Shown here in pieces: positions 33 through 63,811 of a stretch of 64,000 bases of DNA (positions within the stretch are counted from its first letter, which is position 1; every line of letters starts with the position of its first letter). The notes under the pieces were generated by a model that saw only the letters and a program-made list of their open reading frames with translations, had not been told where the DNA came from and did no database searches. The position numbers and the translations under genes were made by a program. This stretch comes from a virus. The stretch lies in the UHGV virus genome UHGV-1364187; one strand, given 5' to 3'.

Positions 33-69
33 GTATAAAAAAAGAAGTAGCACTTTATAGTGCTACTTC
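33..69 (-). terminator. rho-independent terminator (hairpin + T-run) overlapping helicase stop codon
   Basis: inverted repeat gaagtagcact/agtgctacttc with A-run on plus strand (T-run on minus) immediately 3' of the minus-strand helicase gene. Confidence 0.6.
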
Positions 70-1902
70 TTTTACTCTTGGTTCAATTGTTGCTGGAATT
101 ATCATTGCAACTGAACCATTATGTTCTTCTTCCTCAGTTGGTTCTTGAACTATACTTACAGAACCATTAGTTTGATTTCTATATTGTGATAATAAGTAAA
201 TATTATCTCTATTATGAAGTTTATCTTCTAATGGTAAACTTACACTTTCATCATTAAGATTCTCTTCTTGTTGTTGCATAACTTCGGCTCTTGTTCTCAT
301 TCTACTGCTAGAAGAAGTAAGACCTAAATTAGCAATATCATCTTTAAGAGTTTCTTTAAATACTGGAACAAATTTATCTATATCAACATCAAGTCTAATA
401 TGATTTGGTGATGTAAATGGTTGGCAAATATAATATCTAGGAGTACATTTACCTCTACATTTAAATCTATTAAATGACATATATTTATCACCTTTACTAT
501 CATATTCTACATCAATAATAGCTCCCCAATCAATTACATTAAGAATTAAAATTGACTCTGCTATTTGTGCTCTTCCTAATACTCTAGCTACATCTTGTAC
601 ATTATTCAATCTAGCATTATCAGTTTTAGCTGTAGCATCACGATTTAATTGTCCGAATGAAATTACAGGGATATCTTTTAATATAGCAAATGTTTTCATT
701 TCTTCTGCGACTTTTCCTAATTCAACTCTCATATCAGGACATTTATACGTAGATCTAATACAGTTAATATAATCAAAGATAAGAGCTACCATTTCAACTC
801 CTTCATCTTCTAAATCTTCTGCCAATGTATAAAAATATCCTGTATCAACTGAACCATTTGGTACATATTTTACAATGATATCTATTGGAGATTCGTCAGT
901 TAAACATAATTCTCCATCTTCTCTAAGCATTCTAATTACTTCATCAAGACTATAATTTTGTAATTCTGAGTCTGGCGTTAATGCTATATCGAATATACGT
1001 TCAATAGTTTCAGTAATTTGATTTTCCATTGTAAGTAATACAACAGCTGGTCTTTTTGTTGCATCTTTTGGTTGATAATATCTATTAGCTTTTTTCATTT
1101 GTAGTAATAAATTTGTCGCTAATAATGATTTACCAGTATTTGGACATGCAAAGTACATATATAAACGTCCACTTTCAAATCCACCATATGTAAGTTCATT
1201 CATACCCTGCATTCCACATAATAATCTATTATTATTTGATGATAATCTATCATAAGCATCAGTTACAACATTTTGAAATATACCATCTTTCAATGAAAAG
1301 ATTTGATCTGTCATAGATTGTGTTGCAACTCTTCTAAAATTAGATTTGATTTTATCTACCATAGTTTCAATTTCTTTAACAATTGCACCTTTAGATAGAT
1401 AATTACTTGACTTAAATCTAGTCAATACATCAATAAAATCATCTACATCATTGTAGATAAATGAGTATTTTAAAGTTTCTGATACTGTACCATTTACAAA
1501 TTCCAATTCTTCTGTAGATAAAATAAAGTCTTCATAATTTATATCTAAAACATTGTCGTCCATAAACCCATCGTTTATATATTTAATGATAACGTCTGGT
1601 TGTCTTAAATTTTTATCTAATCTTGCTTCTAGAGCTTTTTTAATAAATCTAATCCTCTTCATCTTCTCAGGATCAGATTTATAAATATCCATATTTATAA
1701 TTTCAAATAAGTTTCTTAAACTAATTAGGTGAGATCTCTTTACTGATAAATTTAATGATAGTGTATAGAAACACATAAGATTTAAAGATGTCAAATCAAA
1801 ATTGACATCTATTAAATTTACTTTAGATTTATCTTTTACTACATTATGTCCTTGTCCTGTTATTCTTTTTCTTCTTGTAAGTGACATACTTCCTACACTC
1901 AT
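55..1902 (-). CDS. dnaB: DnaB-family replicative helicase (ORF extends to 1926; probable start ATG 1902 with GGAGGGG RBS)
   Basis: RecA-fold motifs: GRLYMYFACPNTGKSLLATNL (Walker A-like), LTMENQ, ALIFDYINCIR, SFGQLNRD (DnaB arginine-finger QLNR motif); C-terminal tail carries IPATIE motif. Confidence 0.7.
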   Translation of the reverse strand: MSVGSMSLTRRKRITGQGHNVVKDKSKVNLIDVNFDLTSLNLMCFYTLSLNLSVKRSHLISLRNLFEIINMDIYKSDPEKMKRIRFIKKALEARLDKNLRQPDVIIKYINDGFMDDNVLDINYEDFILSTEELEFVNGTVSETLKYSFIYNDVDDFIDVLTRFKSSNYLSKGAIVKEIETMVDKIKSNFRRVATQSMTDQIFSLKDGIFQNVVTDAYDRLSSNNNRLLCGMQGMNELTYGGFESGRLYMYFACPNTGKSLLATNLLLQMKKANRYYQPKDATKRPAVVLLTMENQITETIERIFDIALTPDSELQNYSLDEVIRMLREDGELCLTDESPIDIIVKYVPNGSVDTGYFYTLAEDLEDEGVEMVALIFDYINCIRSTYKCPDMRVELGKVAEEMKTFAILKDIPVISFGQLNRDATAKTDNARLNNVQDVARVLGRAQIAESILILNVIDWGAIIDVEYDSKGDKYMSFNRFKCRGKCTPRYYICQPFTSPNHIRLDVDIDKFVPVFKETLKDDIANLGLTSSSSRMRTRAEVMQQQEENLNDESVSLPLEDKLHNRDNIYLLSQYRNQTNGSVSIVQEPTEEEEHNGSVAMIIPATIEPRVKEVAL

Positions 1903-21354: not shown

Positions 21355-22011
21355 TTATTTTTCTTTTGGTTCTATTGTTGCTGGAACAATTAATTGTTCA
21401 ATTCTATCAACTTTTTGTTGTAATTGGTTAATCTGATTGTACATAAATCTATTTTGTTCATATAAAGGTGTAATCATTGCACTGAATAACCTACCCATAT
21501 CATATACAATTTGTTGCGTATTGAAATGATATTCTGTTTCTCCTAAAGAATCATTTATATATGTTTCGTTAGTTTTATCATCAATAGATTCCATTATTTC
21601 TTTAGAATCATATATTGGATTTGGTAATTGAAAATTTGGATCGTGGTTTTGATCTGTATAACTTCCATTCATATAGATAGATGGTAACAATTCATAAGAT
21701 ATCCAATTCTTAAATTCTTTAGCACATGGCATCTTTGAAGCATAAATAAGATTGAATACATCTGGAAGTTTAATAAAGTTCGTCATTTGCTCTCTACTGA
21801 TAGAATCAGTGACGTTACGTTTCGTAACGTCATCACAATGATCATTAATAACCTTTCTAAAACTATTCTTACTATACCCTAAAATATCTAATACATCATT
21901 AGCACAGAATAATGTATCCGTTTGGTTACCATTTTCTGCTGGTATGATTCTTACACTTCCTAGATTGTTAAAGATAAATTCTTGTACTTTATTCATTTTT
22001 GATTCCTCCAT
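21355..22011 (-). CDS. Bro-N domain protein (antirepressor-like DNA-binding), paralogue 1
   Basis: Bro-N signature MNKVQEFIFNNLGSVRIIPAENGNQTDTLFCANDVLDILGYS...FIKLPDVFNLIYASKMP...EFKNWISYELLPSI; C-terminal LIVPATIEPKEK. Confidence 0.65.
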   Translation of the reverse strand: MEESKMNKVQEFIFNNLGSVRIIPAENGNQTDTLFCANDVLDILGYSKNSFRKVINDHCDDVTKRNVTDSISREQMTNFIKLPDVFNLIYASKMPCAKEFKNWISYELLPSIYMNGSYTDQNHDPNFQLPNPIYDSKEIMESIDDKTNETYINDSLGETEYHFNTQQIVYDMGRLFSAMITPLYEQNRFMYNQINQLQQKVDRIEQLIVPATIEPKEK

Positions 22012-22087: not shown

Positions 22088-22693
22088 TTATTTTTCTTCT
22101 TCTATCGTTGCTGGAACAATAAGTTTACCTTGGACTATTGGATACTTAGGTAAATTTTCATAATCGTCACTACCATTATTAATCATAACAGTACAATTAT
22201 GATCTATAAGAGATTTATCTATTAAATATTCTCCTAATTGTTCTGGAGTTGCTAATATATCATCATTAAATACCATATGTTCTTGACCATTAGGTTTTAT
22301 TATCATATATACCATAGAATCATATGAATTAGTAGAAAAACCATTTAGATTACAACTATCTATATACATAGGACATACTTCAAATGTTCTATTTATAATA
22401 TTACCATTATTATATTGAACATTATCTATACAACTATATATTTCATATCTAGCATTTTCTAAATCTTCCCATTGAATATTACTATGCTCTTTTAAATATT
22501 GAATGGTATAATTTGTAACTTGTGTGTTATCTATAATATTTACTTCATCTTGAATATAAAATTCCATATATAAAGTGCTATTTTTATCGGTATGATATGA
22601 TTGAAATAGTGGATTATCACTTACAATACAAGTGCTCATTCCTACTTCATCTTTTGATACTAATACATAAAAAATTTTATTCATAATATACAT
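22088..22693 (-). CDS. hypothetical protein with C-terminal LIVPATIEEEK tag
   Basis: 201 aa. Confidence 0.45.
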   Translation of the reverse strand: MYIMNKIFYVLVSKDEVGMSTCIVSDNPLFQSYHTDKNSTLYMEFYIQDEVNIIDNTQVTNYTIQYLKEHSNIQWEDLENARYEIYSCIDNVQYNNGNIINRTFEVCPMYIDSCNLNGFSTNSYDSMVYMIIKPNGQEHMVFNDDILATPEQLGEYLIDKSLIDHNCTVMINNGSDDYENLPKYPIVQGKLIVPATIEEEK

Positions 22694-53064: not shown

Positions 53065-53551
53065 TATGCAATGCCTCCTTAGCTATATACTTTACGTAAT
53101 TTTCTTTATCAATATCAAAGTTATACAACCCATTAACAGACATTGACATATTATATTGTGTAGGTGTAAAGTTATAATCTTCAACATCATTGATCATAAT
53201 GGGAATAACTCCATATCTATGTTGTATAAATTTATATACAGATTCTATAATAGCATCAAAATATCCACCATTATCCCTATAGACAAGAAGATATATATTT
53301 TTACCTTCATAAAATGGCATCATCGCTTTCATTAACTCATTTATACCATTTGATTGTAAAATATAGTTTGCATAATTTATATCAAATTCTCTTTCTTTTC
53401 CTTCTTCTAATATAAAAGAACCAGTAGGTATTATATTCAATCTCTCAAATCCTTCTAAAGGACTTAAGAGATTGAATACTAAAAGGTTCTTTACATATGG
53501 TTCTCCAGTTTGAAAATCAACTAATGTAGTATGATCTCCTATGAAAATCAT
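53027..53551 (-). CDS. hypothetical protein
   Basis: 174 aa. Confidence 0.45.
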   Translation of the reverse strand: MIFIGDHTTLVDFQTGEPYVKNLLVFNLLSPLEGFERLNIIPTGSFILEEGKEREFDINYANYILQSNGINELMKAMMPFYEGKNIYLLVYRDNGGYFDAIIESVYKFIQHRYGVIPIMINDVEDYNFTPTQYNMSMSVNGLYNFDIDKENYVKYIAKEALHNGVTELPEGRLY

Positions 53552-63124: not shown

Positions 63125-63811
63125 ATGAATAAAGTACAAGAGTTTATTTTCAACAATCTAGGAAGCGTTAGAATTATACCATCCGAGAATGGTAACCAAA
63201 TTGACACACTATTCTGTGCCAAAGATGTAGCATCTATTTTAGGGTACAGTAACACAAAAGATGCAATTTTAAGACATTGTAAGGGGGTCGTGAAACACGA
63301 CCTCCCTTCAAATGGAGGAAATCAATTAACAAACTTTATTAAACTTCCAGATGTATTCAATCTTATTTATGGATCTAAAATGCCTTTCGCTGAAGAGTTT
63401 AAAGATTGGATCTCTTATGAATTATTACCATCTATTTATATGAATGGTAGCTATACAGATCAAAATCATGATCCAAATTTCAAATTACCAAATACAATAT
63501 ACAATAGTGCAACAGATACATATGATCTAGCACAAAATGTAGATAGTGAATTTGAAATTCCGTGGAATGAAGAAACTTTAAACCAATTCCCAGAATGTAT
63601 GAGAAGATATCAACAAAATCCAAATATTCAATTAAATAAACATGATTCTATGATGTTATATGGTGTAAATCTTATGATGAATGAATATCAACAAAGACAT
63701 TTTGAGTATACAATAAATATAATTAACCAATTACAAAATCAAATCAATCAAATGCAACAAGATGTAAATAAAGTCAAACAATTAATCGTTCCAGTAACAA
63801 TTGAAAAATAA
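63125..63811 (+). CDS. Bro-N domain protein, paralogue 2
   Basis: N-terminal about 120 aa roughly 85% identical at DNA level to the 21355 gene (MNKVQEFIFNNLGSVRIIPSENGNQIDTLFCAKDVASILGYS...); C-terminal LIVPVTIEK. Confidence 0.65.
   Translation: MNKVQEFIFNNLGSVRIIPSENGNQIDTLFCAKDVASILGYSNTKDAILRHCKGVVKHDLPSNGGNQLTNFIKLPDVFNLIYGSKMPFAEEFKDWISYELLPSIYMNGSYTDQNHDPNFKLPNTIYNSATDTYDLAQNVDSEFEIPWNEETLNQFPECMRRYQQNPNIQLNKHDSMMLYGVNLMMNEYQQRHFEYTINIINQLQNQINQMQQDVNKVKQLIVPVTIEK

Follow-up and report, generated by a model that had tools for sequence, protein, structure and literature searches.

A stem-loop apparently kept as a structure within the coding sequence of Bro-N genes of phages and baculoviruses

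The virus genome UHGV-1364187, of which we analysed a stretch of 64,000 nucleotides (nt; hereafter the window), encodes two paralogous proteins with a Bro-N domain, and each of the two genes contains a hairpin rich in G+C (GC) at the same codon. Judged from the sequences, these hairpins, referred to here as hairpins 1 and 2, are members of an ancient stem-loop that appears to be built into the coding sequence of the Bro-N domain and kept as a structure. The element is found in Bro-N genes only, and it spans phages of at least four bacterial phyla as well as the baculoviruses of insects. We consider it very probable that the Bro-N hairpin is a nucleic-acid structure under selection. The best overall explanation that we can offer, a selected stem-loop serving as a self-contained cis element of the sense strand of the Bro-N gene, is put forward more cautiously, as one that falls somewhat short of an even chance of being correct. 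A full-text literature search returned no report of a Bro-N coding-region hairpin, and the element is apparently undescribed.

Results

Paralogous Bro-N genes carry unrelated stems at one codon

The products of Bro-N gene 1 and Bro-N gene 2 (Table 1) match Pfam family PF02498 with 59.9 bits (E = 3.7e-16) and 65.0 bits (E = 9.8e-18), respectively, the curated cut-off of the family being 25.6 bits. Gene 1 most likely starts at 21996, because a GGAGGA Shine-Dalgarno sequence favours the ATG at that position and not the one at 22011. On the plus strand hairpin 1 (21810-21832) reads TGACGTTACG-TTT-CGTAACGTCA; in the sense of its minus-strand gene (21832..21810) it reads UGACGUUACG-AAA-CGUAACGUCA, with 10 of 10 base pairs (bp) perfect, exactly as a first-pass annotation of this DNA had described it. 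Its minimum free energy (MFE) as RNA is -12.8 kcal/mol (z = -2.7). For hairpin 2, GGGGGTCGTG-AAA-CACGACCTCC, the same annotation was right about the 10-bp stem and the AAA loop, but one of the ten pairs is G:U and the coordinates given, 63282-63304, were 1 nt off, the hairpin lying at 63283-63305 on the plus strand. An alternative fold of hairpin 2 has 12 bp with U63303 bulged (63281-63308) and an MFE of -22.0 kcal/mol (z = -5.75), which none of 200 shuffles equals. In both genes the loop falls at codon +5 after a His-Cys (HC) pair.

Upstream of the hairpin patch the two genes share 83.7% identity over 123 nt, and on its downstream side they share 85% over 180 nt, in agreement with the figure of about 85% first reported for the flanks. 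The patch itself cannot be aligned between the genes and, at about 90 nt, exceeds the hairpin in size. Within these divergent cassettes GC-richness is confined to the hairpins, which have 43% and 65% GC against 31% and 28% for the rest; the GC content of the window is 26.4% and not the 28% that had been stated. The codons from which the hairpins are made are scarce in the genome (GAC 10%, GTC 5%, GTG 6%, ACG 3.6%, CGT 7.7%, AAC 11%, GGG 5.7%, CAC 7% and CTC 1.5%), and none of 5000 synonymous recodings drawn with the codon usage of the window reaches the stability of hairpin 1 or hairpin 2. A search for further AAA-loop stems, which the first-pass annotation had proposed as a check, returned seven of at least 7 bp in the window, compared with 10.9 in shuffles, so that such stems are not enriched overall. 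Hairpins 1 and 2 are the only AAA-triloop stems in the window that attain 10 bp, and their GC content is the highest among them.

A 256.5-kb contig of human-gut metagenome origin (ena:ERZ27229639:k119_250412), with the size of a jumbo phage and 26% GC, contains the window. About 88 kb of this contig were read for Bro-N genes, giving a count of at least four paralogues. Outside the window, paralogue 3 (L007:1793-2486) has a 9-bp stem, AUUACCUGU-CAAAACA-ACAGGUAAU (z = -3.6), centred on the homologous AAA, and paralogue 4 (L013:12545-12916), which scores 47.2 bits against PF02498, has a weak 7-bp stem, UAUGUGU-CAAAAAU-ACACGUA, that is not significant alone (z = -0.17). The four paralogues have four distinct stem sequences and share one position, the same Lys codon.

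In paralogue 3 an additional base near TCTT, a short distance upstream of the hairpin, causes a +1 frameshift and divides the gene into a 71-residue N-terminal open reading frame (ORF) and a 161-residue C-terminal ORF (P0007). P0007 occurs on 7 contigs; six loci fetched from different samples are identical where they overlap L007, and three of them reach the frameshift site. The protein of gene 2, P0001, is likewise present on 7 contigs, and six fetched loci, again from different samples, are identical across the gene.

The hairpin recurs at the same site across Bro-N genes

A DNA search of a phage collection found no relative of the window Bro-N gene, every match in that collection at the protein level was below 60% identity, and a single-protein scan of viral contigs gave no match. 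As alignment-based scans of viral and metagenome sequences yielded only 4 and 9 loci, alignments of the protein segment that follows the hairpin were used instead. Sample 1 was collected with this segment only as the query (NFIPEGDLYRL...LPSIRKTG) and comprises 160 loci from bacterial genomes and viral contigs, which reduce to 135 unique sequences. In this sample a triloop stem of at least 6 consecutive bp occurs at codon +5 after the Cys in 34% of cases, compared with a rate of 0.37% over 32,565 codon positions elsewhere; if 8 bp or more are required, the values become 16% and 0.12%. The mean MFE of the 45-nt segment that begins at the His codon is -13.9 kcal/mol, compared with -6.6 kcal/mol for segments elsewhere in these ORFs. 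This segment ranks first in stability within its ORF in 46% of the genes and lies in the top 5% in 69%, those that miss the top 5% being mostly genes whose segment was mis-anchored.

The commonest loop is 3 nt long and starts 15 nt after the Cys codon (54 of 113 scored hairpins). Many stems are 7-10 bp long and some members reach 15-16 bp, and their sequences diverge widely, as illustrated by the arm pairs GGGGUGUCGUG/CGCGACACCCC, GGUACGCCCU/GGGGCGUACC, CUAUGGAACG/CGUUCCAUAG, AUGACUCCCUG/CGGGGAGUCAU and GGCUACCGUG/CGUGGUAGCC of sample 1. Sample 2, chosen by the segment FINESGLY...KRFKxWV, represents the HVDxEDK subfamily, whose peptides are quite different. The hairpin is found at the same place in this sample, with a clear stem in 44 of 61 genes, including GGGGGGUCG-CAAAUCA-CGACCCCC, CUGAUGCAC-CAAAUCA-GUGCAUCAG and CUAAAGUCG-CAAAUCA-CGACUUUAG. 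Its site lies between a conserved His (HC... or HVD...) and the GGxQ/NFI strand, with the centre about five codons past the Cys. In an AlphaFold model of P0001 (predicted local distance difference test, pLDDT, of about 80 for the domain), codons 53-61 correspond to the first strand of a beta-hairpin, in which E56-62 is paired with E65-73. Solved structures, searched both by sequence and by fold, yielded no more than weak matches of winged-helix or LAGLIDADG-like type.

A covariance model built from the sample 1 alignment picks out no sites in the 64 kb but those of the two Bro-N genes, with 50.9 bits for gene 2 and 33.3 bits for gene 1, both of which were in its training alignment; the next score is 13.9 bits. 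Members on which the model had not been trained (L016, L021, L014, L191 and paralogue 4) score 20-41 bits at the expected place. In two unrelated loci the model also scores a further, putative stem-loop that lies some hundreds of bases away from the Bro-N site (L217:1004-1030, 21.1 bits, and L026:1251-1273, 16.9 bits).

We inspected the Bro-N site of 12 named phages, eight of which have a hairpin at the same site. These are Escherichia phage YDC107_1 (GGGUCUGCAU-UUA-AUGCAGACCC), Mycobacterium phage Pippy (AUGGGGUAG-AUCAGAC-CUACCCCAU), Staphylococcus phage vB_SauM_EW22 (CUACGUACC-CAAAUUA-GGUACGCAG), Pseudomonas CF124b, Mycobacterium SuperAwesome, Staphylococcus phage 77, Ralstonia Claudette and Campylobacter PC11; the stretches fetched for vB_SauM_EW22 and PC11 have 27% GC. 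The hairpin is shifted in position in two further phages (Escherichia mEp554 and Vibrio ICP1), and it is weak or absent in the remaining two (C. difficile phiCD505 and Salmonella ciri).

Baculovirus genes were collected with a BRO sequence resembling that of Autographa californica multiple nucleopolyhedrovirus; tblastn confirmed the matches, with identities of up to 80%, and 47 loci from genomes of 110-158 kb gave 43 unique genes. The hairpin of these bro genes is located after an HVDxKYK motif, as in CAAGGGUCGCG-AAU-CGCGACCCUUG (-28 kcal/mol), GGGGGCGCG-AAU-CGCGCCCC and GAGCAGGGUGAGA-CCGUA-UCUCACCCUGCUU. In 25 of the 43 unique genes the most stable 45-nt segment of the ORF begins within codons 50-69, and synonymous permutation shifts the site from -18.2 to -13.8 kcal/mol.

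Base pairing and not the encoded peptide appears to be conserved

Covariation was measured on an ungapped alignment of 42 columns that holds 89 distinct sequences, both window sites included. Paired cells make up 80.8% of the total, a value that none of 500 shuffles reaches (60.7%) and that falls to 31-50% in slid registers. All 12 of the 12 pairs have changed on both sides, compared with 10.3 in shuffles (16 of 500 reach 12), and both sides have changed in 220 cells, against 79.5 (0 of 500 shuffles). The covariation score is 0.594 versus 0.252 in shuffles; these figures, like the sample counts, treat related sequences as independent and are not corrected for phylogeny.

When synonymous codons are permuted within each ORF of sample 1, the site folds at -8.8 instead of -15.1 kcal/mol (mean z = -2.4), with p <= 0.01 in half of the genes. 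The stems have 60% GC against 45% for their ORFs, are the richer of the two in 94% of genes, and stay GC-rich in genomes of 26-27% GC. At synonymous third positions in the stem, transition alternatives that would break Watson-Crick pairing occur at 0.16-0.26 of their expected frequency, the exception being the choice between A-U and G:U, at 0.59. The stems were defined by our own scoring, which brings some ascertainment bias into a follow-up test of G:U pairs and none into the 0.16-0.26 result. The His codon before the Cys is CAT in 82 genes and CAC in 25, against a background of 188:239, and CAT at this codon lengthens the helix, up to 16 pairs. In the 7-nt loops of sample 2 the two arms are read in different frames, and for this reason symmetry at the protein level cannot give the pairing.

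Taken together, these patterns indicate that it is the pairing that is conserved and not the peptide, and that the stem drifts by paired changes which drag the amino acids along. The hairpin region is therefore the hypervariable patch of the protein. The first-pass annotation had claimed that unrelated stems covary at an equivalent codon and that selection acts on a structure rather than on the peptides. Both claims are supported, and they reach far beyond the two window genes. The absence of the hairpin from other paralogues and orthologues, which that annotation named as contrary evidence, was not what we found: it is present in paralogue 3, weakly in paralogue 4, and in phages and baculoviruses.

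Loop composition points to folding of the sense strand

The Lys codon of the loop is AAA in 88 and AAG in 3 members of sample 1, compared with 1300:1242 elsewhere. The same choice is made in sample 2, where the loop Lys codon is AAA 11 times and never AAG (525:447 elsewhere) and the loop Gln codon is CAA 9 times and never CAG (174:289). Counts at the third positions of sample 2 loops are 2 for G (14.9 expected), 10 for C (8.7 expected) and 29 for A (16.5 expected). Baculovirus loops have 4 G and 16 C at these positions, with 9.5 and 13.2 expected, and a CAA:CAG ratio of 9:1 against 374:288. Because loops shun G but not C, these data point to the sense strand as the one that folds, either as mRNA or as non-template DNA. 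Were the structure used symmetrically on both strands, C would be avoided like G; a purely mutational origin, for its part, would lead to no constraint on the loop. An excess of G:T over A:C mismatches (81 versus 36) was considered as proof of an RNA structure and dropped, since synonymous sites avoid G:U like A:C.

Known elements do not account for the hairpin

In searches against Rfam 15, no part of the window matched a family at the gathering score, and 8 representative loci had no match at E <= 1. Several specific candidates were also rejected. A scan of both strands for intrinsic terminators called neither window hairpin, and no T-run follows either stem, which removes the U-run-dependent transcription attenuator from the roles that had been suggested for them. 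The other suggestion that failed is the footprint of a mobile element. A repeated palindromic element (repetitive extragenic palindrome, miniature inverted-repeat transposable element or Rickettsia palindromic element) should exist in many near-identical copies and add length to the gene, but no second copy of either arm occurs in the 64 kb, and comparison with other Bro-N proteins reveals no insertion. A stimulator of -1 frameshifting was set aside after reading of the sequence revealed no in-frame slippery heptamer (X XXY YYZ) at 5-9 nt upstream of either stem. A boxB/nut site of the lambda type does not fit a 3-nt loop (AAA) closed by G-C in an element within an ORF; boxA was not searched for. 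An internal translation start past the hairpin, at a downstream Met for which the Gly-Gly codons would serve as Shine-Dalgarno sequence, was rejected by eye, since the Gly-Gly codons are not biased to GGAGG and the Met is not universal. A pause for co-translational folding seems unlikely to us, as about 10-15 residues would be out of the tunnel when the ribosome meets the stem. Finally, a separate outer helix, CAUUG/CAAUG, that would pair the His-Cys codons with those of Asn-Gly was discarded: the Asn codon is AAC in 11 cases and AAT in 2, and the preference for CAT fits an extension of the main stem.

Discussion

We propose that the Bro-N stem-loop would act, as mRNA or as the non-template DNA strand, as a self-contained cis element on the expression of the Bro-N gene in which it lies. 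Most plausibly, the hairpin would be a ligand of the nucleic-acid-binding Bro-N protein, which would provide autogenous control; otherwise, it would be a plain physical barrier to ribosomes or nucleases. This mode of action, whether by protein ligand or by barrier, is advanced tentatively and with less assurance than the overall explanation given at the outset. As the element is found in at least four bacterial phyla and in baculoviruses, and in Bro-N genes only, it probably does not rely on a host-specific factor. A generic brake on expression is disfavoured because it should turn up in more than one domain family. A signal specific to a host is disfavoured because it would not be expected to cross from bacteria to insects; the economical reading is therefore a self-contained system of a gene and its product. 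A passage of PMC2830988 that cites Zemskov 2000 reports that BRO proteins bind DNA, and bro genes are multi-copy, with 1-16 in baculoviruses, and associated with genome rearrangements (PMC2830988). It is because BRO is reported to bind DNA and bro genes are multi-copy and associated with rearranged regions that we rank a cis element tied to the Bro-N protein first. The most likely order is completed by a DNA-level role in recombination or duplication in second place and a self-perpetuating quasi-palindrome in third.

The narrower proposition that the Bro-N domain has the hairpin as its cognate nucleic-acid ligand we regard as quite improbable. Each bro gene would in that case be a self-recognising unit, in which the coding sequence of a DNA- or RNA-binding protein also holds the structure-specific site for that protein. 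If it were true, such a self-ligand could give autogenous control or a homing-like drive that multiplies bro genes in large DNA viruses from phages to baculoviruses, and this very abundant domain would gain its first specific ligand.

A number of observations weigh against an expression element of the sense strand. An operator 160 nt inside the ORF is an unusual place for autogenous control, and the 64-kb window holds no other hairpin targets for a hairpin-binding protein. The hairpin has been lost or weakened in some lineages (phiCD505, Salmonella ciri and, at z = -0.17, paralogue 4). The sampled sequences are related, and the counts therefore overstate the number of independent events. Further, G:U is avoided at synonymous sites as strongly as A:C, so the tolerated wobbles that are the usual signature of RNA are absent. 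Two amino-acid combinations (Val/Arg and Gly/Leu) account for most of the G:T excess, which may reflect inheritance and not independent events, and the perfect complementarity may be DNA-level or mutational in origin.

The strict preference for Watson-Crick pairs at synonymous sites, where G:U is not tolerated, is what would be anticipated of a DNA-level element, namely a cruciform or single-stranded DNA hairpin in replication or recombination, or a DNA binding site. We judge this explanation unlikely, but it is the one that survives best among the rivals, and we give the same standing to a variant in which the hairpin would be a fork-stalling or strand-exchange hot spot that drives bro duplication, gene conversion or cassette exchange. 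A centre of A and T only between GC-rich arms would ease the nucleation of a hairpin, the element is kept in phages and baculoviruses alike, and the hypervariable cassette is flanked by conserved sequence. The genes are also multi-copy (at least four on this contig and 1-16 in baculoviruses) and associated with rearrangements (PMC2830988). The loops, however, shun G and not C and favour A and not T, an asymmetry that a symmetric cruciform or double-strand site does not predict. About 20% of stem cells are mismatched, which would place a heavy penalty on cruciform extrusion, and the hairpin lies inside the divergent cassette, away from its borders.

Another DNA-based possibility is non-adaptive: intramolecular template switching at replication could keep the arms of an ancestral quasi-palindrome complementary in a segment that tolerates change, giving a palindrome that perpetuates itself and a covariation that is mutational. 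Template switching is known to make hairpins in one step (bioRxiv 10.1101/2023.04.19.537475), and as a universal mechanism it would fit phages and baculoviruses. Complementarity is perfect at synonymous sites while mismatches cluster at amino-acid-changing positions, and the frameshifted paralogue 3 retains a perfect 9-bp stem, as this mechanism would allow. It leaves unexplained why stems are GC-rich in genomes of 26-27% GC, where mutation pressure runs in the opposite direction, and it does not account for the loop rule (AAA 88 versus AAG 3, CAA 9 versus CAG 0), given that the loop is not templated. Nor does it explain retention at one site over extreme divergence when no other site of the ORF behaves in this way. 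We therefore think a self-perpetuating palindrome distinctly less probable than the DNA-level element.

Less probable still, and in our estimation very unlikely, is an mRNA signal read by host machinery, such as a site for ribonuclease (RNase) III, Y or E, a Rho or pause signal, an intrinsic attenuator or a frameshift stimulator. RNase III hairpins are common in phages, some Bro-N stems reach 15-16 bp, and the strand signal favours the sense strand. Many stems, though, are only 7-10 bp long, which is short for RNase III, neither a U-run after the stem nor a slippery heptamer before it is present, and baculovirus bro genes retain the hairpin although their expression takes place in insect cells. 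This conservation is difficult to square with a signal that relies on bacterial RNases or on the coupling of transcription and translation. The idea that two unrelated palindromes are aligned by chance, or that a GC-rich patch was recently imported, can be set aside as extremely improbable: exchange is plausible in so far as the gene 2 cassette matches prophage-type Bro-N in amino acids, but GC-richness is limited to the hairpin, the remainder of the cassette having 28-31% GC, none of 5000 synonymous recodings matches the stability, and hundreds of independent genes have hairpins at the same site.

Several known systems share features with the Bro-N hairpin. The cis-acting replication element (cre) of picornaviruses is a coding-region stem-loop of conserved structure and variable sequence with a constrained, A-rich loop; it belongs to RNA viruses, templates the uridylylation of VPg and lies in different genes in different genera. 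The Bro-N hairpin resembles it in being embedded in coding sequence, in combining a conserved structure with a variable sequence and in its A-rich loop, but differs in that it occurs in DNA viruses and at a site fixed within one domain. The attC sites of integrons are 57-141 bp long with extrahelical bases, are situated at cassette ends outside ORFs and require an integrase. The Bro-N hairpin shares with them a conserved structure, a variable sequence and the folding of one specific strand, and has none of their length, extrahelical bases, cassette-end location or need for an integrase. The boxB element of lambda has a 5-nt GNRA-like loop and a boxA partner, is bound by the N protein and is intergenic in the early phage transcript. 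A short GC-rich stem and an A-rich loop are common to both, whereas the Bro-N element, with a loop that is usually of 3 nt, is located within an ORF and is also found in lytic phages, jumbo phages and baculoviruses. The hairpins of L220 and L023 (GCCCU-AAAAC-AGGGC, peptide DALKQG) have the exact lambda boxB stem, GCCCU...AGGGC, a match that is probably a coincidence.

A cis site inside the gene of its own DNA-binding protein has precedents in lambda O/ori, SPP1 gene 38/oriL and phiX174 gene A, where the sites, iterons or nick sites, are sequence-specific and binding to them is proven. By analogy, the putative Bro-N self-ligand would likewise be embedded in the coding sequence of a DNA-binding protein; unlike those sites, the hairpin is free in sequence and its role as a ligand is putative. 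Coding palindromes are also known from the mitochondrial genomes of Nematomorpha, where, as in Bro-N, inverted repeats lie wholly within genes, both arms are translated, and protein function is preserved together with a stringent secondary structure (PMC6649704). The nematomorph repeats differ in being up to 284 bp long, numerous and confined to a few mitochondrial genomes (PMC6649704), in contrast to the one short stem of 7-16 bp at a single homologous site of one domain family in phages and baculoviruses.

Bro-N is among the commonest domains in the genomes of phages and large insect viruses, and the hairpin offers a testable handle on its role, be it in autoregulation, self-recognition or mobility. 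It would also be a rare case in which a nucleic-acid structure can be seen to dictate a stretch of protein, in viruses of bacteria and of insects alike. The hypervariable wing strand may accordingly mirror drift of the stem and not diversifying selection on the protein. Structured elements of this kind, being within ORFs, escape searches that are restricted to intergenic regions.

Features and minor observations in the window

Table 1. Positions of the Bro-N genes, their divergent cassettes and their hairpins in the window
Feature	Coordinates	Strand	Description
Bro-N gene 1	21355..21996	-	P0002, 213 amino acids
Divergent cassette, gene 1	21781..21873	-	SKNSFRKVINDHCDDVTKRNVTDSISREQMT; 93 nt, unalignable with paralogue
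Hairpin 1	21810..21832	-	AAA loop is the Lys59 codon of the 213-residue protein; codons GAC GTT ACG AAA CGT AAC GTC
Second small hairpin	21796..21810	-	ACUGAU-UCU-AUCAGU, perfect 6 bp, adjoins hairpin 1 on its 3' side in the mRNA sense
Bro-N gene 2	63125..63811	+	P0001, 228 amino acids
Divergent cassette, gene 2	63248..63331	+	SNTKDAILRHCKGVVKHDLPSNGGNQLT; 84 nt, amino acids nearly identical to Firmicutes prophage Bro-N proteins
Hairpin 2	63281..63308	+	Core GGGGGUCGUG-AAA-CACGACCUCC at 63283-63305; loop is the Lys57 codon

A C-terminal tail of the form (L/I)(I/V)(V/I)P(A/V)TIE is common to four different ORFs of the window. It is carried by both Bro-N proteins (21355-21393, minus strand, and 63782-63811, plus strand), by an unrelated 201-residue ORF at 22088-22693 (GKLIVPATIEEEK; tail at 22088-22126, minus strand) and by an ORF that ends near position 60 (AMIIPATIEPRVKEVAL; tail at about 60-110, minus strand). 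The tail is also present in paralogue 3 (L007:2440-2486) and in distant relatives (IVPAIII, IIPAKIVK and VVPLIRIVK), and it looks like a shared C-terminal signal. Elsewhere in the window, a 20-bp hairpin unrelated to Bro-N lies within a long ORF at 53435-53479 on the minus strand and, with an MFE of -25.2 kcal/mol, is the most stable 45-nt coding segment of the 64 kb.

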